64,000 bases of DNA from an uncultured Candidatus Marinamargulisbacteria bacterium. GTDB lineage: Bacteria > Margulisbacteria > Riflemargulisbacteria > GWF2-35-9 > DYQY01. Location of the stretch: the NCBI GenBank assembly GCA_964429235.1, contig CAYSAQ010000001.1:266045-330044 (forward strand), read 5' to 3'. The stretch's first letter is position 1, and the number at the start of each line of letters is the position of its first letter. A program made the position numbers and the translations under genes. The notes beneath the pieces were generated by a model, which saw only the letters and a list, made by a program, of their open reading frames with translations, ran no database searches and was not told the origin of the DNA. Shown piece after piece: positions 3,920 to 17,705 of the stretch.

Positions 3920-4627
3920 TTAATTTGATAATACCCTAAACTCTAAGTCTTGTTTAATCTTTTTCCAATCAGGAAGCTTTTTTGAAAGCAAGTCATAGAA
4001 CTTTCTATCATGTTTAGAATGAGAAACATGGCATAATTCGTGAATCATTACATAATCAATTTGCTGCCTCGTTGCTTTAATAAGGTTTGGATTTAAAATA
4101 ATAGTATTGCTTCGTAAGTAACTGCCCCAACGTTTATTTAGCTTCCGAATCTTTAATAAAGGCAAATGGTCATATTCAAATAACTTAAAACATATTTCCA
4201 ACCGTTCTTGAAACTTTTGCTCTGTTTTTTTCCTAAACCATTTAGTTAAAAGATTTTTAGTTCTTATACTGTCTTTGGAGTACTTAGAATGAACATTAAT
4301 CCTGCCCATTGAAAGAGAAACATATTCTTTATAATCAGCTTGACCAACATTCAATTTGTACTGTCTGCCTAAATACAAAAAGCTCTCACCGCTAACATAT
4401 TCCTTCTCTAACTGTGACGAAAACTGTAAAAAATATCTACGTTGTTTAAGAATCCAAATAGACTTTCGTTTTAAAAAATCATATATTTTCTGCTCATTAT
4501 CAGTACTTGGTACTTTCACAATAATATTACAATTAGGAAAAACAGTAGCAGTAATTGTCTTACGGTTCTCTTCTAGTAATGAGTAATCAAAAGAAATGTT
4601 CTCATATACAAAAGTCTTGTTAATCAT
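3920..4627 (-). CDS. YgjP/DUF45-like zinc hydrolase (annotated in databases as M48-family metallopeptidase), linked to hsdR
   Basis: 235 aa with C-terminal YVMIHELCHVSHSKHDRKFYDLL (HExxH). Its ATG overlaps the hsdR stop by 4 nt (4624-4627). Confidence 0.75.
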   Translation of the reverse strand: MINKTFVYENISFDYSLLEENRKTITATVFPNCNIIVKVPSTDNEQKIYDFLKRKSIWILKQRRYFLQFSSQLEKEYVSGESFLYLGRQYKLNVGQADYKEYVSLSMGRINVHSKYSKDSIRTKNLLTKWFRKKTEQKFQERLEICFKLFEYDHLPLLKIRKLNKRWGSYLRSNTIILNPNLIKATRQQIDYVMIHELCHVSHSKHDRKFYDLLSKKLPDWKKIKQDLEFRVLSN

Positions 4628-7600
4628 TTATTCTTTATTTCCAAATTCCAAGCATCAGAAACAATACGGTCAATATCTTCAACTTTAAAAGGAATATTAT
4701 ATTCATCCCTAACAACATCAAATAAATAATCCTCTAAATCATTCCTTACTTCTCTTTCTACTTCTATGTTGCTATACCAATCAACGATCTTCTTATCATT
4801 TATCATTTTATGAAGCTCTGTAGTTATAACAGACAAAGAGTCGTCAGAGACATTGTATGTTTCCATATACTTCTTCATACTTCTAAACAATGGATGTAAT
4901 TCTTTCTTGTCTTTTATATCAGAAGGGATGTCACTATCCTCATAGTCTTTAACTTTCTGCTGATAGTTCTTAGCCTGACCTAGCAAAGCCAATAAGTCTT
5001 CTGTTTTAGCCACTCTTAACTGTGCAATAAGCTCTTTAACTTTATCTCCAAACTTTTTATAAAAATCAGGATCTTTATCCCAGTTCTCCTTAATTGTTTT
5101 CTCTGTTTGCGCTGCAATAGCTTCTGCCTTTGATTTATCCGACAATCCATTCTGATCATCCTCAATAAACTGATTGAATTCTAGTGCATCTGATAAATTA
5201 ATTGGCTTAGAAAGAATTGATACATCCTCAGACACTACATATTTATTCAAAATTCTCCTTATCTGGTCTTCGTATTTTGAAAAATCTATTATTTCTGCAT
5301 GCATTGCTTTAACTATTTTTTTAATCTCAATAAAACGTTTCAAATCAAGCACATAACGTTTCATTTTTGCATCATCAAACTTTTCAAAAAAATCTGGCAA
5401 TCCTCTACATACAGCGAAGTTCTTAATAAATGAATTAACTAGTTCATAATAACGTTCACGTTTCTCTATATCACCAGACACTTTATTTATATATTCTTGT
5501 GAATCTTTCCTGTTTTTAACATCATTAAACATTGAATGAAGATGCTGATAAACACTTTCTAAATCTGAAATCTTTTCATCAGTATCTATTAATGCTCTAT
5601 TAATATCCTCTATATCATAATTAGAAAATAATTCTAGTGCATACCTAAGATTTTTAGCATTCTTAGAGTAATCTATAATAATCCCATTAGTCTTAGACTC
5701 TTTAGCATTGTCACCATTAAAAAGCCTATTTACCCTTGCTATAGCTTGTAAAAGATTATGCTCCTTTAATTCCTTAGCAAGATATAGGAAGGTATTACGT
5801 GGAGCATCAAATCCTGTTAATAATTTATCTACTACAATAATAATCTTGCAACCGTCTGGATTGTCTTTAAAATCTTTAATAATAGATTTTTCTCTAATCT
5901 CTAAGGAATACCCGTGCTTATGCTTTTCTTTATCCAAAAATTCTGCAACAAGCTTCTTATGCTCTGGCAACTTATCGTCTGCAACATCATCTAAACTATT
6001 GTCAGATATAATCACATTGGAGTCATGAAAGCCAGCTAGCTTAAATGCTTCTTGAAATAAAACTGCTGCATATTTGGAGGGAGCAACAACCTGGGCCTTA
6101 AGGCCTGTATCTTTAAACTCTTCATAATGGTCCAAAATATCAGAAGCGATAAACTCTATTCGTTGAGAATTCTGTTCAATAATCTTTGAACTTGTAAACT
6201 TCTTCTCCAAATCTTTTCGTTGTTCTTCTGTTAAATCTTTTGTTGCTCTATCATAAAATTTATCGAGGATGCTTTGTTGCACTGATTGCTCTACAAATCT
6301 TGCTTGATATATTAATGGCAATACAGCGCCATCTTCTTCTGCCTCTGAAATTGTATAAGAATCTATTAAACCCCTAAACTTACTAACACTCTCCTTATCC
6401 TTCTTCATTAATGGTGTACCTGTAAATGCTATCTGACATGAATTAGGCAATGTCCTATTCAGCTCTATATTTGCTAAACCACCTTGGGTTCTATGAGCTT
6501 CATCTATTAAAACAAATACATTTGGATCAGTATCAGTAAAATCTCTGAACTCTTTTGATGACTCAAACTTATGAACCAGAGTTGTAATAACTCTCAAATC
6601 CTTTTCTTTGATTAATTTCAATAGCTCTTTACCATTATTTGCTTGAATAACACCTTTTTTCACATTACATGCTTCAAAAGTATCTCTGATTTGTTTATCA
6701 AGGTCTTTTCTATCTGTAACAACAACAATACGAGGTAACTCGATAGAATCCTGCTCAATAATAGCTTTAACTAGCATAACCATTGTAAGCGATTTCCCAG
6801 AACCCTGAGTATGCCATACTAGTCCACCATTTCGTCTGCCATTTTCTTTTATATCAGAAACTCTTTTAATGATTTTCTTTATAGCAAAATACTGTTGATA
6901 ACGAGCTATCTTCTTAACATTTGCATCATAGATAACAAAACCATGAACAAGCTCTAAAAGTCGCTCTGGTCGCAACAAACTATAAATACCATTATCCTGT
7001 TCTGAGATTGCTCTATCACCTACATAAGCGTCTCTTCTTAATAAATCATGATTTACTATAGTTATATCTTCTTGTTTTGAGTGGACATCAATACTCTCAT
7101 ACACAACACCATCATACTCATCTTTATCAGCACCTTTTTCTTTCCATACAGCCCAAAATTCAAATGGAGTATTCATAGTTGCATACTTAATCTCTCGAAC
7201 ATTGCAGGCAACTAACACCTGTGGGAATAAAAAGAACTTTGGTGTTTGTTCTTTTCCTTGGTTACGAATCATCTGAGTAACAGCATCAGTTACTGGCACT
7301 GAAGACTTCTTGTTCTCTATAACAGCAAAGGGGATCCCGTTAACAAACAGAACGATATCAGGTCTACGGTTATGAACCTCATCCAATTCATACTCAGCAC
7401 AAACATGGAACTTGTTATTATTAGGTGTTTCAAAATCTATAAACCTCAACTGAGGATGCACATTCTTACCGTTAATTATCTCTGACACGCCAACACCAGA
7501 TATTATCTTCGAAAAAATGTCTTCTGAGGCCTTAACTACCCCGTCAGACATATTAATATTTTCTAACTCGAATATTTGCTCTCTTATGCTTTTATCTGAT

Positions 7601-7806
7601 ACTTCTAAAGAATTAATCTTACGTACTGCTTCAAATGCGATATCTTGGAATATATATTTTGATTTGCTTTCCCTAATTCGATTTACTTCTGCTCTAGGAA
7701 TGTATTCATATCCTAAATTAATTAATTGCAATATTGCAGGTATTTGAGAATTTGAAGCCTCATCAAAATCAGGCAAATCGTAGTCATTTTCAAAATATTC
7801 AGACAT
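4624..7806 (-). CDS. hsdR: Type I restriction endonuclease subunit R
   Basis: 1060 aa with SF2 helicase motifs HTQGSGKSLTM (Walker A), LIDEAHRTQ (DEAH) and LLTGFDAP. It sits in a locus with hsdM and hsdS. Confidence 0.93.
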   Translation of the reverse strand: MSEYFENDYDLPDFDEASNSQIPAILQLINLGYEYIPRAEVNRIRESKSKYIFQDIAFEAVRKINSLEVSDKSIREQIFELENINMSDGVVKASEDIFSKIISGVGVSEIINGKNVHPQLRFIDFETPNNNKFHVCAEYELDEVHNRRPDIVLFVNGIPFAVIENKKSSVPVTDAVTQMIRNQGKEQTPKFFLFPQVLVACNVREIKYATMNTPFEFWAVWKEKGADKDEYDGVVYESIDVHSKQEDITIVNHDLLRRDAYVGDRAISEQDNGIYSLLRPERLLELVHGFVIYDANVKKIARYQQYFAIKKIIKRVSDIKENGRRNGGLVWHTQGSGKSLTMVMLVKAIIEQDSIELPRIVVVTDRKDLDKQIRDTFEACNVKKGVIQANNGKELLKLIKEKDLRVITTLVHKFESSKEFRDFTDTDPNVFVLIDEAHRTQGGLANIELNRTLPNSCQIAFTGTPLMKKDKESVSKFRGLIDSYTISEAEEDGAVLPLIYQARFVEQSVQQSILDKFYDRATKDLTEEQRKDLEKKFTSSKIIEQNSQRIEFIASDILDHYEEFKDTGLKAQVVAPSKYAAVLFQEAFKLAGFHDSNVIISDNSLDDVADDKLPEHKKLVAEFLDKEKHKHGYSLEIREKSIIKDFKDNPDGCKIIIVVDKLLTGFDAPRNTFLYLAKELKEHNLLQAIARVNRLFNGDNAKESKTNGIIIDYSKNAKNLRYALELFSNYDIEDINRALIDTDEKISDLESVYQHLHSMFNDVKNRKDSQEYINKVSGDIEKRERYYELVNSFIKNFAVCRGLPDFFEKFDDAKMKRYVLDLKRFIEIKKIVKAMHAEIIDFSKYEDQIRRILNKYVVSEDVSILSKPINLSDALEFNQFIEDDQNGLSDKSKAEAIAAQTEKTIKENWDKDPDFYKKFGDKVKELIAQLRVAKTEDLLALLGQAKNYQQKVKDYEDSDIPSDIKDKKELHPLFRSMKKYMETYNVSDDSLSVITTELHKMINDKKIVDWYSNIEVEREVRNDLEDYLFDVVRDEYNIPFKVEDIDRIVSDAWNLEIKNK

Positions 7807-7810
7807 TGTT

Positions 7811-8656
7811 TTATTCCTTTAATCCTTTAATTTTACTTGTAGCAATTTTCTTTTCTTGAGATTTAACTCGTCTTTCTAACTTCTTTATATCTTCTTCTGG
7901 TAGTAGTTTTTCAGGGATTATACCTCTTTTTATCAAAAGATCTCTTACGTCATGATTGTTTTGAATATGCTCATTTGTTATTTCATGTTCACCATATAGA
8001 TCATCTTTTTTTACATTAAAATTTGTAATTTCTGTAGCAAGGTTTTTTGCAGTTATCGTTACTGTTGGTAAGAAGTCAGCTAGTGGTCTACCTTTAGGAA
8101 TATCCAGCTTATTTTTCATTGCTTGCGTATTCTTTCCACCAAAAAGAATGGAATCACCTTTTGACCTGATTCTGCCAAAACCTTTTTCATCTACACCACG
8201 CTCATAAATATTCTTTGATAACTCTGTTTCAGATGTTGTAAGTTTTTTTCTTGCATCAAGTCTTTCATTTAACTTTAATCGTTCTTCTATGATTTCCTGC
8301 TTTCTTGTTTGAATTGCAAAATAACTTTGGGCAAAAGCGATTACAGGTTTTGCCGAGTCTCCATTCATAGCAATTAAATAACACGCATAACGGGTAAACA
8401 TAACATCTTTTATCTCTCTTTTTGCTCCTGATCCTAAATCTACCATTTTGTTGACCTCAACAAAATGGTCTAATGGGTCCTGCTTACTATTAACACAAGC
8501 CTCAATAGCCTTATCTATAACTTTTATAAAGTTTCTCCACTCCGCATACTCAAGCAGCTCTTGTATATCTCTAGCAAACCAAAACTCAACTCCATTGTCT
8601 TCAAACATATAATCATTAAATGATTTATACATTCTCGCTATTTTCATTTTCTCCAT
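7811..8656 (-). CDS. dinD: DNA damage-inducible protein D (DinD)-like protein
   Basis: 281 aa. By eye it resembles my recollection of E. coli DinD over most of its length (FARDIQELLEYAEWRNF, FTRYACYLIAMNGDSAKPVIAFAQSYFAIQTRKQE). Only 4 nt separate it from the hsdR start. Confidence 0.7.
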   Translation of the reverse strand: MEKMKIARMYKSFNDYMFEDNGVEFWFARDIQELLEYAEWRNFIKVIDKAIEACVNSKQDPLDHFVEVNKMVDLGSGAKREIKDVMFTRYACYLIAMNGDSAKPVIAFAQSYFAIQTRKQEIIEERLKLNERLDARKKLTTSETELSKNIYERGVDEKGFGRIRSKGDSILFGGKNTQAMKNKLDIPKGRPLADFLPTVTITAKNLATEITNFNVKKDDLYGEHEITNEHIQNNHDVRDLLIKRGIIPEKLLPEEDIKKLERRVKSQEKKIATSKIKGLKE

Positions 8657-8678
8657 AACTAACTCCTTTCATAACCAT

Positions 8679-9827
8679 TTAATTATCTGCGTTTCTAAAC
8701 TCTTGCATTCTAATCTCACCAGTTACTAGTTTGTTTAATAAAAATTTCTTTTGTTTTTGTGTTTTTTTTAATTTTTGTTCGTATAGGTCTATTTCTTCAT
8801 CTGCATCTGTGAGAACTTGAGCGATGGCTTTTTGCTCCATTAAACAAGGTATCTTAATTTTCATATCAGCTATCATTTCCATACGAACTGAATCTACAGA
8901 ACCTTTAGCACTCATAGAAAAAACCCTTTTAGGAAATTTACTTTTAAAAATAAAGAAAAACCATTTACCACATACATCAACATCAAAACTATGAATATTA
9001 TATACTCTTTGATGATAATCAAACTTACCATTTATGTAATGGAAAATTTTACCGACACCAACACCATCTCCAGAAGTTATTACTGCCTCTCCGTCAAAGG
9101 AATATGAATTAATTCTTTCAATTGTCTGAGACCTTACAAAAAATGGATATAAACCATCATCAATTTTATTTTGAGTATCTTTAGCGCCAGTACAAATAGA
9201 AGAAAATTCTTTTATTCTTTTTTCTTCCCACTCTCCACTAAACCCCTTCAACCTAGTCTTACCAGTTAGCAACTGTTGCATTAGTCCTTTTTTTCGATCT
9301 TTCAATAAATCTATTTTTTTAGTTAATAAATCGATGCCTTCATCGAAGTTGGTGAGGACTTGGGCAATGGCTTTTTGTTCAGGTAATGGGGGCATACAAA
9401 ATTTAAGTTTTTTAATATCTGAACTGTTAACAGCTGTAAATGTTGAACCTTGTTCATATTTCTTCCATCTTAATTCATATCGCAATAAATACTGATATAT
9501 ATAACTCTGGTTACTTTTTGTTGCTCTAATTGCACAAACCCCTCTACCAATACATGCATTATGTATCGATAATGCGATATCCCCAACTGGTGCTCGAACA
9601 CTCATTAATATATCATTGGGATTACATGTTTTAGTAATTTCTGTAGTCCATTGTCGAGGTGCAGACAATCGATTATTCATATCAGTGTTTCCTTGAATTA
9701 ATGGCGTTCCGTTACCCTCTGTATTATATGACGATGATAATGGTGATTGCCCCATAATTATTAAGCATACATCATTTAATAATACGTCTTTCCAACCTTT
9801 AGGGATTTGGTTGTTAGGTTTTGTCAT
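8679..9827 (-). CDS. hsdS: Type I restriction-modification specificity subunit S (two target-recognition domains)
   Basis: 382 aa with two variable halves. Each half is followed by a conserved helix repeat: LPEQKAIAQVLTNFDEGIDLL...LLTGKTRL and LMEQKAIAQVLTDADEEIDLY...LVTGEIRM. Confidence 0.9.
   Translation of the reverse strand: MTKPNNQIPKGWKDVLLNDVCLIIMGQSPLSSSYNTEGNGTPLIQGNTDMNNRLSAPRQWTTEITKTCNPNDILMSVRAPVGDIALSIHNACIGRGVCAIRATKSNQSYIYQYLLRYELRWKKYEQGSTFTAVNSSDIKKLKFCMPPLPEQKAIAQVLTNFDEGIDLLTKKIDLLKDRKKGLMQQLLTGKTRLKGFSGEWEEKRIKEFSSICTGAKDTQNKIDDGLYPFFVRSQTIERINSYSFDGEAVITSGDGVGVGKIFHYINGKFDYHQRVYNIHSFDVDVCGKWFFFIFKSKFPKRVFSMSAKGSVDSVRMEMIADMKIKIPCLMEQKAIAQVLTDADEEIDLYEQKLKKTQKQKKFLLNKLVTGEIRMQEFRNADN
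8809..8837. repeat. hsdS conserved-region direct repeat, copy 1
   Basis: gtgagaacttgagcgatggctttttgctc matches 9352..9380 at 25 of 29 nt. It encodes the (E)QKAIAQVL helix after TRD2. Confidence 0.7.
9352..9380. repeat. hsdS conserved-region direct repeat, copy 2
   Basis: gtgaggacttgggcaatggctttttgttc matches 8809..8837 at 25 of 29 nt. It encodes the EQKAIAQVL helix after TRD1. Confidence 0.7.
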
Positions 9828-10677
9828 TAGGTGGTGTCTCCTTAATGTTTCGATTATTTTTTATTCTTTTATATTCTTGATAAATAGTTTGTTTTATTAT
9901 TATTTCAAAATCAAATCCTTTTACATTATATGAATCAATAGCTTCTATCGTTAAATCAAAAATTTCTCCTGAACTTATAAATAAATTGCGAACAGTACGA
10001 GTCATAAAATATGATAATTCTTTATATTCATCTTTTTGAACTGCAGATATTTCTTTGTTATGCCTAGTTTCTTTTACGCTTTCATTTATTCCCAGTGCAT
10101 ATTCCTTAATAATTATAAAAGCTTGTACGAATTCCCCCCACTTAATAAATAAATTTTTTTGTTTAGAATACTTTGATTTACAATAATCATTTAATAAAAC
10201 AATATGCTCTGGCATTAGTTCTTTAATTTCTAAAATCGCTAAGCCCAAAGGTCTATCCTGGTTTATTCTTTCATCATCAACTTGTTTTAATCGATATATA
10301 ATTGATAGATTATAATATGCAATACTGTAAGCTTCTTGTAGTTTATTAAATTTCATCTTTTTCTTTTGTTGTTCCTTAAACCATGTTTCAAGAAGGAAAA
10401 CAATAAGACCTACTATTAGTCCTGTTAGTATACCTGGAGCATAATCTTTCCAGAAAGATACTTTGGAGTCAATAATAATAGGATATGCATGATTTCCTTG
10501 TTGCAATGTGATTGTTTCTTTTTTTGTATATGCAACTAGTTCATTAAGTGTTGAGGAATGAACAGTTAATGCTACGTTAACTGTAGGGTTATTTAAAGAA
10601 ACATATATTTGATTATTAATAGTGGCAATATTAGTTGTTGGCATTAGGTTGATTCCTTTAAAGGGATTAGCCCCCAT
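9814..10677 (-). CDS. hypothetical single-pass membrane protein, no recognisable family
   Basis: 287-aa ORF with one strongly hydrophobic segment, APGILTGLIVGLIVFLLETWF, near residue 80-100. An alternative ATG at 10644 shares a base with the TIR stop (TAATG). The 3' end overlaps the hsdS ATG by 14 nt. Confidence 0.6.
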   Translation of the reverse strand: MGANPFKGINLMPTTNIATINNQIYVSLNNPTVNVALTVHSSTLNELVAYTKKETITLQQGNHAYPIIIDSKVSFWKDYAPGILTGLIVGLIVFLLETWFKEQQKKKMKFNKLQEAYSIAYYNLSIIYRLKQVDDERINQDRPLGLAILEIKELMPEHIVLLNDYCKSKYSKQKNLFIKWGEFVQAFIIIKEYALGINESVKETRHNKEISAVQKDEYKELSYFMTRTVRNLFISSGEIFDLTIEAIDSYNVKGFDFEIIIKQTIYQEYKRIKNNRNIKETPPNDKT

Positions 10678-11438
10678 TGACCTCGTTGTTTTTCATGCAT
10701 TACTCCTATGAATTTAATATCAATATCTTTTTTCTTGGTTATTTCTGCTACAAAAGGGAATCCAGGAACTGTAGCAGCGCCTATAGACATTGTTTGTCCA
10801 TTAAATATTTTGCCATTGTTCAATTTTATTCCTTCATTAAAACCACCCATAAACATAACCTGACTAATACATTTAAACTTTAATTCACCTTTAGTATTAT
10901 TTACTAATAATAAATAGTTAGAAATCGGCTCCATATAATGAATCGCCTTACATTCTATAATTAATTTATTATCTAGTTTTTTCACTTCAGCTATTAAGTT
11001 ATGAAATTCAGCTGGTTGCCGATATGTGTTTTCTCCAGAAATAACATCAATAAGTTGTCTAAGAGTGACTTCTAGTCCATCTTGAAATAAATTTATCCAT
11101 AATGTCTGTAATAATACTGGTGGCATTAAGCAATCATCTAATTTTACAGGAATAAATTTAGTTTCTCCTTTTGTAGCTTTTAATATTGCATTTTGCCATT
11201 CAAGTTCAACAAGTTTACTTTGCAGACTATTTTTTGATACAAAAAATATAAAGAATTTACATTTATCAAGTCCTTCATTCATTTTATCGATGACGCCATC
11301 ACCTGGTTGAATTGACCATGAGTCATAGAAAACTTTATCTTGTCCAAACGTATCTTTTAAACGAACAGCTAATTGTTCGATAATAGGTTTATCTTTGTGG
11401 TTATGTGAAAGAAAGATCACTTCAAAAAATCCTCCCAA
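10644..11438 (-). CDS. TIR-domain protein with unassigned ~130-aa C-terminal domain
   Basis: N-terminus VIFLSHNHKDKPIIEQL...KFFIFFVSKNSLQSKLVELEWQNAI fits the bacterial TIR pattern. The ORF-track start at 11438 is TTG. A GTG at 11420, with GGGAGGA upstream, overlaps the Abi stop as GTGA. Confidence 0.75.
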   Translation of the reverse strand: MGGFFEVIFLSHNHKDKPIIEQLAVRLKDTFGQDKVFYDSWSIQPGDGVIDKMNEGLDKCKFFIFFVSKNSLQSKLVELEWQNAILKATKGETKFIPVKLDDCLMPPVLLQTLWINLFQDGLEVTLRQLIDVISGENTYRQPAEFHNLIAEVKKLDNKLIIECKAIHYMEPISNYLLLVNNTKGELKFKCISQVMFMGGFNEGIKLNNGKIFNGQTMSIGAATVPGFPFVAEITKKKDIDIKFIGVMHEKQRGQWGLIPLKEST

Positions 11439-12331
11439 TTAGTAGGGAATCCATATGCGCCCAGTTCAATGCTTGGGAATTCATTAGCCAATTCATTTAA
11501 TCTATATTTCCATTTGCTTTGTGAAGCAATTTCTTGCATAAAATAATTACAAATCATAATAATACTAAAAACTTTTTGATTTGAAACAGTAGTTGGATTA
11601 TGCCATTTTGGAAATTTGTTTTTTGCAGGAATTAAAGGCTTATAACCAAGCACCCTATTAAAAAGTATTGAATGGTGAGCACAAATGTTTCTCATCGAAT
11701 GTAATGATCTAATCCAAGATAAAAGCAATTTATCAGCTATTTTATAATGCGAAGCTATTTTTTTTATTAGCTCATCGGGCAATCCTTTAAACAAGGTATG
11801 TGTTGTTCCAAATGAAACTATTTCTATAAGTATCCATATTGGTAAGTCATTATGTTTCCGCCCATATTTATTAAAGAAATTTACAACAAAGTTTTCTTTA
11901 GATTTACTTGATTTCCCTCTTTTTCTAAATGTTTCTTTTCGAATCCCTTTGATTAGGTTCTTATACTCTTTACTTGTTAGGTTAGGAAAGTTGCTTTTCT
12001 TTAAATAGCCAAATGTTCCACATTTCTCAGCAAAAAGGTATACTACTTGTGTCCTGAAAGAAATCTCAATCCTTTCAATAGCCTCTAGTAATATAATCCT
12101 GAGTCTACGATCAAATTTGTATAAGTCCCAGATTTTTTCTAAAGTTATATCTGATAGGAAGTTTTCAGAATTTTTTTGTCTAAAAGGATAGAGATACCCA
12201 GTAAATCTATAATAATTAACTGACTGTAAAACTTTAACCAGCTTTCCCTTATCAGCTATCAATCCTCTGGAAATTAATTTATTAGCTTGATCCTCAAAAG
12301 ATATCCATTGCTTGTTATATTGCATAGACAT
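11417..12331 (-). CDS. Abi_2 / AbiD-AbiF-like abortive infection family protein
   Basis: 304 aa. N-terminal ISFEDQANKLISRGL..., SVNYYRFTGYLYPF and NICAHHSILFNR are hallmarks of Abi-like (Abi_2) proteins. The likely true start is the third codon (ATG at 12325), given the AGGGGA spacing. Confidence 0.75.
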   Translation of the reverse strand: MSMQYNKQWISFEDQANKLISRGLIADKGKLVKVLQSVNYYRFTGYLYPFRQKNSENFLSDITLEKIWDLYKFDRRLRIILLEAIERIEISFRTQVVYLFAEKCGTFGYLKKSNFPNLTSKEYKNLIKGIRKETFRKRGKSSKSKENFVVNFFNKYGRKHNDLPIWILIEIVSFGTTHTLFKGLPDELIKKIASHYKIADKLLLSWIRSLHSMRNICAHHSILFNRVLGYKPLIPAKNKFPKWHNPTTVSNQKVFSIIMICNYFMQEIASQSKWKYRLNELANEFPSIELGAYGFPTNWEDFLK

Positions 12332-12342
12332 CCCCTGAAAAT

Positions 12343-12386
12343 AAAAAAACCCGTCGAATTACGCTTACATGTAGAGGCGCGACGGG
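12343..12386 (-). terminator. Rho-independent terminator-like hairpin between hsdM and the Abi gene
   Basis: On the minus strand: CCCGUCG (12386-12380), a 23-nt loop with possible extra GCG/CGC pairing, CGACGGG (12356-12350), then UUUUUUUAUUUU. It ends about 12 nt before the Abi ORF. Confidence 0.6.
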
Positions 12387-12439
12387 TATACTATTTTCAT
12401 TATACCCATAAAATGAGTAAATTAAACATATTATTATTA

Positions 12440-12457
12440 ATATTATGATCATAATAT
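12440..12457. promoter_or_regulatory. 18-bp perfect palindrome just downstream of the hsdM stop (possible operator)
   Basis: atattatgatcataatat is its own reverse complement and is centred on GATC. It lies 3 nt from the hsdM stop codon. Confidence 0.3.
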
Positions 12458-12460
12458 AAA

Positions 12461-13960
12461 CTATCCCAATATCTCTTCTAAATGCTTCTTCATCTTTTTT
12501 TCAGCAACTACAAGCTGTTTATCAATTTCAACAAGCTCTTTTTGAACTTTTGTAATATCTATCTCTTCTTCTTCCTCAAAAGTATCCACAAAACGAGTTA
12601 TATTTAAATTATAGTCGTTTTCTTCTATTTCTTTGTAATTAACAACCCTAGCGAATTTCTCTACATCTTCTCGTTTTTCATAAGTATCAAGAATCTTCTT
12701 AATATTTTTTGGTTCAAGCTTATTCTGAGCTTTTTCTGATTTAAACTCTTTTGATGCTTCAATAAAGAATATATCTTTCTTGTTTTCATTAGCACCACCA
12801 ACTTCTCGAGACTTATCTATAATCAATATAGCAACAGGTATACCTGTAGTTTGAAAAAGACCTGCTGGCAAACCAATAACAGTATCAATAATATTTTCTT
12901 CTAAAAGCTGTTTTCTTATCTTTCCTTCTGCGCCACCTCTAAACAAAACACCATGAGGAACAATCACAACAACTTTTCCTTCTTTTGCTTTTGCTGTCTC
13001 TATCATATGACTGATAAAGGCATAATCACCTTTATCTTTTGGCGCTATGCCTCTGTGAAATCTATTATATGGATCATTTTCAGCATTTTCAGCACCCCAT
13101 TTTTTTAAACTAAATGGTGGATTTGCCACTACTAAGTCAAACTTCATTAATCTATCGTCTTCTATTAGTAATGGGTGGTTTAATGTGTCACCCCACTCTA
13201 ACCTTGCCGAATCCTTACCGTGCAGAAACATATTCATTCTTGCTAAATTATAAGTAGTTCCTATCTTTTCTTGACCATATAGTGCATAGTTATTTGAACC
13301 AACTTCATCACCTGCTAATAGTAAGAGACCACCCGACCCCATAGCTGGATCACAAATACGAGAACCCTCTTTAGGTTTTGCTAATTTTGCAACAAGTTCA
13401 GCAACTTCGTGTACTGTAAAAAACTCACCCGCCTTTTTCCCTGCATCAGCACCGAACCGCTCAATCATAAACATATATGCACGACCTATAATATCTTCTT
13501 CTGCCTCACTAAGGTCTATTTTGGCAAAATCACCAATCAAATCACGCAACATTTTATTTCTCTGAGTAGTTTTACCTAGGACTGACTCAGAATTAAAATT
13601 AACTGAATCAAACAATCCTTTTAATCGCTCATTCTTATCTTCTATCTTATGCAAAGCTTTATTAATGATTTCGCCAATATTATCGGCTGACTGTTGCCTG
13701 TATATATCATAAAAACTTGCTCCTTTTGGCAATACAAACCTAAAATTCTTTAACTTCATCGAGATTCTTTCTTCATCACTACCATATCTAGCTTCAAGCT
13801 TTTCTACTTCAACTTTATGAAGGTCACTCATGTATTTATAGAACAAAAAAGTCAACGCATAATCTTTAAAAACTCCACCATCCACAGTTCCCCTAGATGA
13901 ATTTGCAGCATCCCATAAAGTACCGTTCAATACATCTTGTGTATATTTTTTAGTATTCAT
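12461..13960 (-). CDS. hsdM: Type I restriction-modification N6-adenine DNA methyltransferase subunit M
   Basis: 499 aa with the SAM motif DPAMGSGGLLL and the catalytic motif VVANPPFS. An HsdM N-terminal domain is present. Confidence 0.93.
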   Translation of the reverse strand: MNTKKYTQDVLNGTLWDAANSSRGTVDGGVFKDYALTFLFYKYMSDLHKVEVEKLEARYGSDEERISMKLKNFRFVLPKGASFYDIYRQQSADNIGEIINKALHKIEDKNERLKGLFDSVNFNSESVLGKTTQRNKMLRDLIGDFAKIDLSEAEEDIIGRAYMFMIERFGADAGKKAGEFFTVHEVAELVAKLAKPKEGSRICDPAMGSGGLLLLAGDEVGSNNYALYGQEKIGTTYNLARMNMFLHGKDSARLEWGDTLNHPLLIEDDRLMKFDLVVANPPFSLKKWGAENAENDPYNRFHRGIAPKDKGDYAFISHMIETAKAKEGKVVVIVPHGVLFRGGAEGKIRKQLLEENIIDTVIGLPAGLFQTTGIPVAILIIDKSREVGGANENKKDIFFIEASKEFKSEKAQNKLEPKNIKKILDTYEKREDVEKFARVVNYKEIEENDYNLNITRFVDTFEEEEEIDITKVQKELVEIDKQLVVAEKKMKKHLEEILG

Positions 13961-14538
13961 TACTTAGCTCCTTTTCTAATAGTTATATCAATATATTTAT
14001 TAATAATTTGCTGTTCCGTAGCCATCTTCTTTTTAGTCAAAATAAAATAATCCTTAAAGTCATTAAACTTTTCAACAACATCATATTGCTCTTTAAGGGT
14101 AAGTGATGGAATCGTAACATTGGAAATATTAGACTTATTTATAAACGGAATAGTTGTTGTTTCTAGCAAATTCAAAATCTGTTTTTGACCGTCTTTTGAA
14201 TTAAGATATAAACTTACATACTCAGGGTCAAACTGCTGAGAACTAACTCTAATAACAAAAACACCAGAAGTGCATAAATATTGAGCTGAATCCTTATTAC
14301 AAAATATTGAAGAAGTAAATCTTCCCCTATTTGTAATTAGAACATCTTTTCTTTTTAGCATACTTTTCCCACCAGTAGATAATGAGACTTTAATCAAGCC
14401 ATTGTAATCAATACTTGTATCAGTTTTAATATCCCTAGGCTGTATTACAAATGTATTACTATCAACAGAATTCTCGAGTTTCTCCCTAAATGAATGTCCT
14501 AAAAAAATATCAGCTATATCACATAATTTATTTATCAT
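13960..14538 (-). CDS. hsdS: half-size Type I specificity subunit (single target-recognition domain)
   Basis: 192 aa with an HsdS-like start (KLCDIADIFLGHSF), one TRD and one conserved helix (IPSLTLKEQYDVVEKFNDF...). Its stop shares a base with the hsdM ATG (TAATG at 13958-13962). Confidence 0.75.
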   Translation of the reverse strand: MINKLCDIADIFLGHSFREKLENSVDSNTFVIQPRDIKTDTSIDYNGLIKVSLSTGGKSMLKRKDVLITNRGRFTSSIFCNKDSAQYLCTSGVFVIRVSSQQFDPEYVSLYLNSKDGQKQILNLLETTTIPFINKSNISNVTIPSLTLKEQYDVVEKFNDFKDYFILTKKKMATEQQIINKYIDITIRKGAK

Positions 14539-14544
14539 GGCTAA

Positions 14545-14572
14545 ATTATAACAGAACAGTAGATAGTGTCAA
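14545..14572 (-). promoter_or_regulatory. Consensus sigma-70-type promoter for the half-hsdS/hsdM unit, predicted leaderless
   Basis: Minus strand reads TTGACA (14572-14567), a 16-nt spacer, TATAAT (14550-14545), then ttagcc and the ATG at 14538. There is no Shine-Dalgarno sequence. Confidence 0.55.
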
Positions 14573-14594
14573 GTACAGTATTGAGATACTGTAC
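14573..14594. promoter_or_regulatory. Perfect 9-bp inverted repeat abutting the -35 box (candidate operator)
   Basis: gtacagtat-tgag-atactgtac lies directly upstream of the TTGACA element in the minus sense. Confidence 0.35.
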
Positions 14595-15021
14595 CAAGTT
14601 ATGGTAGCGGTAACAGAAATTAATAATATGCATGAGAAAATTAACCATCAATCTAATAATCTATTACTATAACTTATATCATACGCTAAACCCCTTATAA
14701 AATGTAGGATTACTGCCCTATATTAAAATATTAGGATTGATTTTTTACTTTTGCATTCTAAATACGTCTTCCCAATTGTTTAGCCGAATTAGAAAGAATA
14801 AATTAACATCTATGCGGGCACTCTCCGCTACGCCTCAGGCGTACGAGAAAAGCCATTGCCCTATGATTTTCCAAGCATGATTTAATTGTAGTCTTTCTTT
14901 AAGGGAGTTTTGGGAAGACTAGGCGGGATTGTTAAGGGCGGCTATAAGCCCTTAATTCATTTATTGGCAAGACTTATCATCCATGAGAAAATTATTCCAT
15001 CTTTTTCAGAGGAGTACATTA

Positions 15022-16325: not shown

Positions 16326-17705
16326 ATGCAGGACAATCAGGTTAATCTAGAAGAAATCCAACAAATTTTAATATCAGGAACTTTAACTGATATTAGATTA
16401 TTAGTTGCAGAAGTTCACCAAGCAGATATCGCTGATGCGCTTGAAGCCATGAACAGAGAAAACCGTATTACTTTCTTTAAAAAAGTTAAGCCAGAGATCA
16501 TTAAAGAGGTTTTTGAGGAAATAGAACACCCTATTCAGGCTGAACTAGTAAAAAAGCTATCTCGCATCAAAGTAACAGAACTGATTGACCATCTAGATGC
16601 CGATGATGCAGCTGATTTAATCCTGAACATCCAAGAAGAAGATGAAACATTGGCTGAAAATATTTTAAAATCACTTAAAGAACGAATCGAAATTCAAAAA
16701 CTTCTGAAATATGAAGAACATACTGCTGGAAGTATCATGAATCCAGACTTTATAGCTATCCCTGAGAATTTGACTGTAAAACAAGCTATATTACTATTCA
16801 AAAAAGCAAATCCATCTGATGAGGAATTTGTTTACTATATATATATTATTGATGATGCTGGCGTGCTGCAAGGAATTACCAACTTAAAAGACCTTATACT
16901 TGCTAACCCAACAACACACATTGAAACACTCAGAGATGAGAACTTCCAATCTGTATATGTAAATATTGACCAAGAAGAAGCTGCAAATATGATATCGAAA
17001 TATGACCTTGTCGAACTTCCAGTAGTAGATGATAACAATAAAATGATTGGTATTATTACTGTTGATGACGTTGTTGATATTATGAGAGAAGAAGCTACAG
17101 AGGATTTCCTGAAATTATCAGGCACCACCACAGGTGAATTAGACGAAGAAACACTCCTTAGTGGCAACATATTTAACTCAGCAAAAACTAGATTGCGTTG
17201 GCTCATGCTTACTATGGTCGGAGGGCTACTTTCTGGTAGCATACTCGCATATTTCACTGTTACATTTAAAGACATTGATTTATCACTACCTATTATTCTC
17301 AGCTTCATTCCATTACTTATTGGTATTGGCGGTAATGTAGGGAATCAAGCAGCAACAATAATGGTACGCGGACTAGCAACAGGACATATAAGACCTCACT
17401 CTGTTATGAAAAACATCTACAGAGAAATGGGGATCAGTATAATTATTGCTTTTGGCGTATCAATTAGCCTCTTTATTATTACGTTTATACTTTTCAAAAC
17501 ACCAATATATGGATCAATGATTGGAATCGCTATACTCTTAAACATTATTCTTAGTTCTGCCTTTGGCATTACATTACCCCTATTATTCAACAAAGTAGGA
17601 ATTGACCCAGCTATTGCCTCTGCTCCATTCATTTCAACTACAATTGATGTAGCTGGTCTAGCCATATACTTTATTGTTCTATCTACTACTTTATACTTTA
17701 TCTAA
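16326..17705 (+). CDS. mgtE: magnesium transporter MgtE
   Basis: 459 aa with an N-domain, a CBS pair (GVLQGITNLKDL, IGIITVDDVVD) and a C-terminal 5-TM domain containing GNVGNQ. Confidence 0.9.
   Translation: MQDNQVNLEEIQQILISGTLTDIRLLVAEVHQADIADALEAMNRENRITFFKKVKPEIIKEVFEEIEHPIQAELVKKLSRIKVTELIDHLDADDAADLILNIQEEDETLAENILKSLKERIEIQKLLKYEEHTAGSIMNPDFIAIPENLTVKQAILLFKKANPSDEEFVYYIYIIDDAGVLQGITNLKDLILANPTTHIETLRDENFQSVYVNIDQEEAANMISKYDLVELPVVDDNNKMIGIITVDDVVDIMREEATEDFLKLSGTTTGELDEETLLSGNIFNSAKTRLRWLMLTMVGGLLSGSILAYFTVTFKDIDLSLPIILSFIPLLIGIGGNVGNQAATIMVRGLATGHIRPHSVMKNIYREMGISIIIAFGVSISLFIITFILFKTPIYGSMIGIAILLNIILSSAFGITLPLLFNKVGIDPAIASAPFISTTIDVAGLAIYFIVLSTTLYFI

Follow-up and report, generated by a model that had tools for sequence, protein, structure and literature searches.

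The segment between positions 3920 and 14538 of a 64,000-nucleotide stretch of contig CAYSAQ010000001.1, from an uncultured Candidatus Marinamargulisbacteria bacterium (this whole stretch is hereafter called the window), encodes a Type I restriction-modification (R-M) system together with several genes unrelated to R-M. Taking all the evidence together, this segment probably represents a Type I R-M island that was acquired by horizontal transfer and belongs to a widespread family, in which a fixed R-M backbone carries exchangeable and independently acting defense cargo. A total of nine open reading frames (ORFs) of 192 to 1060 amino acids (aa) follow one another head to tail between 14538 and 3920, all on the minus strand, as recognized by ORF listing, translation and direct reading. 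A preliminary description of this DNA, made from the letters alone, had proposed a Type I R-M defense island with embedded non-R-M genes, and the assignments by Pfam, PADLOC and NCBIfam bore this out; the same-strand run of nine genes and the overlaps and gaps given in that description were all reproduced by the ORF listing, translations and sequence reading. The number of non-R-M passengers, described as four, holds when the YgjP-like gene is set aside, but rises to five once this gene is counted.

Fixed backbone and exchangeable cargo

Relatives of the island were collected by metagenome scan with HsdM, giving 80 loci of 65-85% identity, onto which the window proteins were mapped. Only related loci with room for the respective gene were used for counting the half-size S and YgjP-like genes. 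Of 69 loci, 67 had a half-size S gene immediately ahead of hsdM, and in all 28 a YgjP-like homologue directly followed hsdR. The backbone half-hsdS-hsdM...hsdS-(dinD-like)-hsdR-ygjP-like is fixed family-wide, and the YgjP-like gene (Pfam, 9.6e-48; HELCH in the translation) is, as judged from its gene context, a fixed companion of hsdR in this R-M family.

The distance from hsdM to hsdR was 2.2-9.8 kb in 33 of 34 loci, exceeding the need of hsdS alone (about 1.3 kb), and therefore every complete relative carries embedded genes. Since there was no cargo-free relative, the embedding of cargo as such does look selected. The cargo genes are nearly always on the same strand, and the first of them usually begins 10-30 nucleotides (nt) after hsdM. 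When the 147 ORFs between hsdM and hsdR in the relatives were examined with Pfam, the most abundant assignment was Methylase_S (32 ORFs, the hsdS genes themselves), followed by Bro-N (18), SMODS (9), RhuM (7), Patatin (4) and DUF3800 (3), while the families observed once or twice included AAA_15/21, KilA-N, Fic, SLATT_4, Prok-E2_A, GIY-YIG, Abi_2 and TIR_2. The cargo of the relatives, different in each and equally tightly packed, includes cyclic-oligonucleotide-based anti-phage signaling systems (CBASS), RhuM, Bro-N and Fic.

Two sister islands, designated L088 and L087, share backbones of about 75% DNA identity with the window island, but the cargo is different. With the cargo given in parentheses, the gene order is half-S, M, (abiF RNA, Abi_2, TIR, TM), S, DinD, R and YgjP in the window, where TM stands for a transmembrane protein; half-S, M, (abiF RNA, Abi_2', TM'), S, (DUF559), DinD, R and YgjP in L088; and half-S, M, (Bro-N, a 325-aa protein, a 61-aa Zn-ribbon protein, TIR, a SIR2-like protein of 372 aa, GIY-YIG), S, DinD, R and YgjP in L087. 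Between the window and L087, the TIR genes share 76% DNA identity, as do the hsdM genes, and the similarity ends at the ORF ends. Between the window and L088, protein identity is only 35% for Abi_2 and 31% for TM. The cargo is therefore exchanged module by module. The specificity genes are also affected: the second target recognition domain (TRD2) of the window HsdS (8809-9197) and TRD1 of the L088 HsdS (4466-4854) are 83% identical in DNA and the other TRDs are unrelated, which indicates TRD shuffling or permutation between the sister islands. The flanks of L088 are unlike those of the window. A fragment of an L088-type island (L175) originates from the same sample (ERZ27316330) as the window contig (L003), so that populations with different versions of the cargo co-occur.

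The preliminary description took the tight coupling of the passengers as a sign of their co-selection with the R-M genes. This view gained no support from the relatives, because backbones of about 75% identity hold different and equally tight cargo, which makes tight packing a property of the cargo bay; furthermore, both the Abi_2 and TIR families are found mostly outside R-M loci.

The location of the segment within the host genome was examined by synteny. In three contigs whose GlyS is 63-64% identical to that of the window, DUF1015 and glyS are adjacent and divergent at a distance of 134-152 nt, and these relatives keep the same FtsX-SurA...MurB-MurC neighborhood as the flanks of the window. 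The 10.6-kb segment is therefore a true insertion, and the comparison of synteny proposed in the preliminary description proved decisive in this respect, whereas that of GC and codon usage, also proposed there, did not discriminate. The GC content of the island genes (0.28-0.34) stands against 0.345 +/- 0.025 elsewhere, and neither GC at the third codon position nor codon usage distinguished them from the rest of the window. The nearest named relatives of GlyS belong to Candidatus Margulisbacteria (48-50% identity). No att-like flanking direct repeats of at least 8 nt were found at the island borders; ARAGORN detected no tRNA or tmRNA gene in the whole 64-kb window, and no Rfam family reached its gathering score over the same range. 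In L087, the island adjoins a tRNA-Gly(CCC) gene and a 95-aa integrase fragment (positions 4815-5473 of that region), which fits with mobility.

Some additional features were observed around these islands. At the cut-off 5' end of L088 (positions 1-75), the opening sequence ends with ...GTCCACCA, finishing in ...CCACCA, and resembles the 3' end of a tRNA or tmRNA, for which ARAGORN and Rfam gave no call; the first 33 residues of the final ORF of L088 (11040-11147) resemble, by eye only, the start of a tyrosine recombinase. Next to the window island, a gene for an MgtE magnesium transporter (16326-17705) is present between a 197-aa gene and DUF1015 and is absent in the syntenic contigs L168-L170, representing a second difference in gene content immediately beside the island. 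The non-coding stretch from the island promoter to DUF1015 is 444 nt in length (14539-14982) as compared with about 140 nt in the relatives, and contains GC-rich segments and a hairpin (14931-14956), without match to Rfam.

Abi_2, TIR and TM proteins

The first cargo protein is a member of the Abi_2 family (Pfam, 179.6 bits against a cut-off of 25.6, 9.7e-53; PADLOC AbiD, 8.4e-71). It matched the structure 8vz6 of PDB, annotated as 'Abi family protein' (E = 1.5e-37), and its R214-x4-H219 was aligned to RNSCCH of that protein. Upstream of this gene, the gap after hsdM contains on the minus strand a hairpin (12386-12349; fold energy, -14.3 kcal/mol), followed by a U7 tract, at about 10 nt ahead of the ribosome-binding site (RBS) of Abi_2. 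The hairpin matched Rfam RF03085 (abiF RNA) over the full model with 27.2 bits, which does not reach the gathering score (37), and with E = 0.0034 for the gap and 0.22 for 11.7 kb; this was the one relevant match in the Rfam scan of the region. The conserved GCCUCU segment and both abiF stems are present in the window hairpin. In L088, an abiF motif of 35.5 bits is located in the equivalent hsdM-to-Abi_2 spacer, with compensatory changes in the stems. The motif was also identified upstream of Abi genes on two plasmids, with 40.1 bits in L173, above the gathering score, and 34.9 bits in L174, in which an unrelated Type I locus harbors the Abi gene in the order hsdR-Abi-hsdM-hsdS. Upon alignment of the four sequences, the stems were kept, with double changes at three of nine pairs. 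The motif was not found upstream of an Abi_2-like fragment in L139. A scan of viral contigs with the Abi_2 alignment gave no confirmed match, the peptide patterns chosen for it being poor.

As judged from both homology and gene context, the hairpin matches an abiF-motif RNA belonging to the Abi_2 cassette. In the preliminary description it was regarded as a terminator-like hairpin between two R-M transcription units: the hairpin and the U-run are indeed present, but they match the abiF RNA motif and are not just a terminator between R-M units. In Clostridioides difficile, abiF is transcribed from the promoter of its abiF-motif RNA, RCd22, at which most transcripts are terminated; deletion of RCd22 raises abiF expression 17-fold, and RCd22 neutralizes the toxin through direct binding in a manner similar to type III antitoxins (PMC12373285). 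Toxicity and its relief by the RNA are known for AbiFCd/RCd22 only. In the solved PbAbiF-ncRNA complex, R and H of the HEPN motif are essential (PMC12373285).

The TIR protein (Pfam TIR_2, 87.8 bits, 1e-24) is one of a very widespread and unusually conserved family with a TIR and a beta-sandwich domain, which comprises at least 1158 clusters of about 260 aa; the members examined are 39-77% identical over the full length. Its hosts include Proteobacteria, Bacteroidota, Firmicutes, Spirochaetes, Tenericutes, Gracilibacteria, the candidate phyla radiation (CPR) and Thaumarchaeota, the archaeal hosts including the ammonia-oxidizing Nitrosotalea and Nitrosocosmicus. In an alignment of 22 sequences, E74 within LEWQNA was invariant, a position corresponding to the catalytic Glu of the SxWCxxEL-type motif of TIR NADases. 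PADLOC v2 has no full-length model for this family, the best match being PDC-S66 for the TIR part only, and ThsB models of PADLOC matched weakly and partially (best E = 2.9e-5). The neighbors of the TIR gene were examined in 80 genome loci (L007-L086) by tblastn with the island proteins, inspection of adjacent ORFs, all-against-all clustering, and a census of same-strand neighbors with Pfam and PADLOC. No recurrent neighbor was detected in these loci; the adjacent genes were those for helix-turn-helix proteins, housekeeping genes and assorted R-M parts, and the TIR gene was always a lone gene. The most economical reading of the sequences is that the TIR protein is a self-contained sensor-plus-NADase gene product. 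As a separate observation, the TIR gene in L087 (10001-11901) overlaps through ATGA with the gene for a 372-aa protein starting VVILGAGASEEYG, which showed weak matches to several PADLOC SIR2 models (best, 1.9e-7) and none to Pfam; this arrangement recalls Thoeris.

The TM protein is the sole island gene product without a database family, as no family was found in Pfam, PADLOC, NCBIfam or PHROG. A TM helix is located at about residues 70-90, followed by a lysine-rich stretch which points to a cytoplasmic location of the C-terminal helical part. Search against 5.8 billion clusters returned the protein itself only, and that against 1.8 billion representatives a single true homologue, P0123 (31% identity, E = 1.4e-13), sharing the conserved blocks KKETITLQ...YPI and the TM helix. 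In both L088 and L175, the gene for P0123 stands immediately between Abi_2, which it overlaps through ATGA, and hsdS, to which it is joined through TAATG, and there is no TIR gene. An identical TM protein was found in contigs of several independent metagenomes, with the same gene context wherever the contig was long enough. Most likely, but weakly so because the Abi_2-TM pairing is known from two islands, the TM protein serves the Abi_2 cassette as an accessory or effector.

R-M genes, gene junctions and promoter

The coordinates of the island genes and associated elements are listed below.

Table. Genes and sequence elements of the Type I R-M island in the window, in the direction of transcription
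Feature	Position	Strand	Description
9-bp perfect inverted repeat	14594-14573	minus	GTACAGTAT-CTCA-ATACTGTAC; abuts -35 of island promoter
Promoter-like site	14545..14594	minus	TTGACA-16-TATAAT, TG-extended, 14572-14545; 12/12 consensus match
half-hsdS	13960..14538	minus	192 aa; one TRD and one conserved helical region
hsdM	12461..13960	minus	499 aa; N6-adenine methyltransferase subunit
abiF-motif non-coding RNA element	12339..12404	minus	possible -10, hairpin, U7 tract
Abi_2 / AbiD-AbiF family protein	11417..12331	minus	304 aa; HEPN-type RNase toxin (by homology)
TIR protein	10644..11420	minus	258 aa; GTG start; TIR_2 and C-terminal all-beta domain
TM protein	9814..10644	minus	276 aa; ATG start at 10644; orphan single-pass membrane protein
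hsdS	8679..9827	minus	382 aa; two TRDs and two conserved regions
DinD-like / Bro-N protein	7811..8656	minus	281 aa; PADLOC candidate PDC-S13
hsdR	4624..7806	minus	1060 aa; restriction/translocase subunit
YgjP-like gene	3920..4627	minus	235 aa; HExxH metallohydrolase

The island proteins were assigned by Pfam to Methylase_S, N6_Mtase plus HsdM_N, Abi_2, TIR_2, Bro-N, HSDR_N plus SWI2_SNF2, and YgjP-like, and by PADLOC to REase_I, MTase_I, Specificity_I, AbiD and PDC-S13. All the components that define a Type I R-M system were found, namely HsdM with its motifs, HsdS with two TRDs, and HsdR with nuclease and superfamily 2 (SF2) motor. For HsdM, N6_Mtase (334 bits) and HsdM_N were detected by Pfam and TIGR00497 scored 298 against a cut-off of 243, with the motifs NPPF and DPAMGSGG in the translation. 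For HsdR, Pfam detected HSDR_N, SWI2_SNF2, ResIII and a T1R_D3-like domain, and TIGR00348 scored 490 against a cut-off of 285, with the motifs PD...ENK, GSGKS and DEAH. The full-length hsdS matched Methylase_S in two stretches, its conserved regions forming a 55-nt internal direct repeat.

The half-hsdS product matched Methylase_S weakly (E = 2.2e-5) and many Specificity_I models of PADLOC. Its homologues are uniformly 188-203 aa in length, with conserved framework motifs and variable TRD, and these half-S proteins appear to behave as working specificity subunits, not as remnants. It has been shown that dimers of a half HsdS methylate a palindromic site and are capable of restriction once HsdR is provided (PMC6158711). 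It is a reasonable inference that two specificities are served by the single HsdM and the single HsdR. A phase-variable hsdS shufflon was considered and rejected, as both S genes lie on the same strand and no recombinase is encoded in the island; inverted repeats in the island were only short, chance-level ones.

The DinD-like protein matched the NCBIfam DinD equivalog (358 bits against a cut-off of 242) and PDC-S13 (7.5e-114 over positions 1-274 of 281). In addition, it matched the first 270 or so positions of a 717-position Specificity_I model of PADLOC, PDLC03083 (6.3e-47), and its paralogue in L087 did so with 5.1e-103, from which it follows that some Type I systems have HsdS fused to a DinD-like domain. 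These matches hint that the DinD-like protein may be an accessory of the R-M enzyme and not a free passenger.

The genes are joined with almost no spacers. One base is in common between half-hsdS and hsdM (TAATG), and after the 129-nt gap between hsdM and Abi_2 (12332-12460), the junctions are GTGA for Abi_2/TIR (the TIR GTG at 11420 overlapping the Abi_2 TGA), TAATG for TIR/TM, an overlap of 14 nt for TM/hsdS, gaps of 22 nt for hsdS/DinD-like and 4 nt for DinD-like/hsdR, and ATGA for hsdR/YgjP-like. The Shine-Dalgarno sequence of TIR, GGGAGGA, lies within the part of Abi_2 coding for its C-terminus, and the starts of TIR (258 aa) and TM (276 aa) agree with independent metagenome gene calls.

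The -10 of the promoter-like site of the island ends 6 nt ahead of the half-hsdS ATG, and the -10-to-ATG spacing is identical in L088 (400-465), which suggests that the half-hsdS mRNA is leaderless. A palindrome is present also in L088, differing from that of the window and located between -35 and -10. Both palindromes could be candidate operators; no regulator gene is present within the island. Within the island, TATAAT at 12404-12399 is a possible -10, with about 12 nt separating it from the abiF hairpin downstream. The scan of the region for sigma-70-like promoters, however, gave 63 matches against 59 expected by chance, and internal promoters therefore cannot be called. Two transcription units, as proposed in the preliminary description, are plausible for the window, but according to the comparative data the break belongs to the Abi_2 cassette, given that the hairpin in the 129-nt gap matches the abiF motif. 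Separation of S and R from M did not turn out to be a design of this family, because most relatives have only 10-30 nt between hsdM and the first cargo gene, too little space for a terminator.

Proposed mode of action, alternatives and known systems

In the mode of action proposed here, restriction would be the first line of defense, and HsdM probably serves both a half-S homodimer recognizing a palindromic site and the full S recognizing an asymmetric bipartite site. The hsdM-to-hsdS interval would function as a cargo bay filled in each relative with different, independently acting defense genes, arranged for translational coupling and carried on the transcription of the operon. By analogy to AbiFCd/RCd22, the abiF-motif RNA would terminate most transcription ahead of the toxin gene and bind the toxin as an RNA antitoxin; infection may then upset the balance between RNA and toxin, releasing the RNase and leading to abortive infection, as predicted from homology. 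NAD+ consumption, triggered when the C-terminal domain senses infection, is the most likely activity of the TIR protein, and the TM protein, recurring only beside Abi_2, may add an accessory or effector function to that cassette. Since the abiF hairpin is located between hsdM and everything downstream, the expression of hsdS and hsdR should be lowered relative to hsdM.

Several observations weigh against this proposal of a backbone with independent cargo modules. The score of the window abiF element stays under the Rfam gathering score (27.2 versus 37 bits), which is the main caveat of its identification, and the Abi_2-TM pairing rests on two independent islands only. The TAATG coupling between TIR and TM is exact, and the TIR gene stands exactly between two genes that are adjacent in L088; neither is explained by fully independent modules. 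Structural approaches were of little help: the TM structure predicted from the two-sequence alignment was rejected as unusable (predicted local distance difference test [pLDDT] of 42), and fold searches with the TIR model were uninformative, giving TIR matches only and a weak CBM3/cohesin-like beta-sandwich for the C-terminal domain.

Among the alternatives, the passengers might be guards wired to the R-M enzyme as in the PrrC-EcoprrI model, being held inactive and firing when a phage anti-restriction protein disables the complex. The embedding between hsdM and hsdS/hsdR is as expected for guards, PrrC is almost exclusively embedded in Type I R-M loci according to the literature, Abi genes recur in or beside unrelated Type I loci, and PDLC03083 (717 aa), with its DinD-like N-terminal region, suggests a physical linkage of DinD-like domains to S subunits. 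Guards of this kind are nevertheless unlikely here, because near-identical backbones freely exchange their cargo, Abi_2 is under its own putative RNA antitoxin control, most members of the Abi_2 and TIR families are outside R-M loci, and a PrrC-like ATPase or anticodon nuclease is absent from the nine proteins as judged by Pfam, PADLOC and NCBIfam. Less likely again is that the abiF hairpin acts as one RNA switch, setting the dose of hsdS/hsdR as well as that of TIR/TM and restraining the AbiF RNase, so that perturbation by phage would free the RNase and boost the downstream defenses, with Abi_2-TIR-TM forming one wired abortive-infection module.

The three cargo genes could also form one integrated system, in which either a Thoeris-like signal activates a TM pore or effector, or AbiF, TIR and TM form a complex. 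Their joining through GTGA and TAATG overlaps would be accounted for, as would the TM protein, which has no other explanation, and the closest TIR homologue, that of L087, is coupled through ATGA to a weakly SIR2-like protein (1.9e-7) in a Thoeris-like manner. This integrated trio is quite improbable in view of the comparative results: all the cargo in this R-M family is equally tight whatever its identity, the sole homologue of TM stands beside Abi_2 with the TIR gene absent, the TIR family has no recurrent or effector-class neighbor in the 80 genomes, and the TM protein matched no ThsA, SLOG, Macro or other PADLOC model. That the locus is a decaying or inactive remnant, with half-hsdS as a truncated pseudogene and the TM ORF as spurious, is very improbable. 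The weak Pfam match of half-S and the orphan nature of the TM protein could be taken in this way, but half-S is kept at 188-203 aa in 67 of 69 relatives with conserved framework and variable TRD; the R-M proteins are all full length against the curated models, with catalytic motifs retained; the TM homologue has the same TM segment at the same position; and an identical TM protein recurs in several independent metagenomes in the same gene context. These observations altogether favor the fixed backbone with exchangeable, independently acting cargo.

The general idea of embedded back-up defenses, also put forward in the preliminary description, is established in the literature. Defense genes embedded in Type I R-M loci are already known (PMC11411939; bioRxiv 10.1101/2024.01.29.577857), as exemplified by PrrC in EcoprrI, TgvAB in Vibrio cholerae VPI-2, and the 'guilt-by-embedding' PDC/HEC candidates (Payne et al. 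2024). The locus exemplifies this known pattern and is not a new kind of system, and current ideas are not overturned by any of these findings. Modestly new are the family-wide backbone including half-S, full S and the YgjP-like gene, the putative abiF attenuator/antitoxin ahead of hsdS and hsdR, and the nomination, through guilt-by-embedding, of two uncharacterized defense candidates, the TIR family and the TM protein. With a putative abiF RNA in the middle of an R-M operon, the ratio between methylase and restriction subunits is predicted to be affected.

The island shares with Thoeris a TIR_2 protein whose gene is immediately followed by a coupled one; ThsA of type II has a membrane anchor. 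The TM protein, however, lacks a ThsA, SLOG, Macro or SIR2 signature and the TIR family is single-gene in the 80 genomes, and identity with Thoeris was rejected because no ThsA partner was detected with Pfam and PADLOC or in these genomes. Likewise, no PrrC/RloC ABC-ATPase plus anticodon nuclease is located between the hsd genes, as would characterize a guard of the PrrC class. Instead of PrrC or GmrSD-like genes, as in the PrrC and TgvAB loci, this island carries an AbiF cassette together with a TIR gene and an orphan membrane gene, and there is no indication that this cargo depends on the R-M enzyme.

The cassette is similar to AbiF(Cd)-RCd22 and PbAbiF-ncRNA (8vz6 family) in having an Abi_2 HEPN protein with the R-x4-H motif, and to AbiF(Cd)-RCd22 in having a putative same-strand abiF-motif hairpin with U-tract just ahead of the toxin RBS. 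It differs in that a single abiF motif would double as the terminator, whereas RCd22 has two motifs and a separate terminator; in that the cassette is placed in the middle of an R-M operon, with the terminator also ahead of TIR, TM, hsdS and hsdR; and in that the Rfam score of the RNA is below the gathering threshold. As in engineered and natural half-HsdS Type I systems, an S protein with a single TRD is encoded beside hsdM, but in this family half-S and full S coexist with one hsdM and one hsdR. The same-strand arrangement of non-R-M genes between hsd genes is shared with the embedded defense genes reported for Type I R-M, bacteriophage exclusion (BREX) and DISARM (defense island system associated with restriction-modification) loci, and the embedded candidate PDC-S13 is matched by the DinD-like gene of the window in full length. 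Within this known pattern, the family illustrates cleanly, by comparison of its members, how a Type I R-M system can be a carrier of exchangeable defenses, in which the fixed parts are separable from a variable bay.

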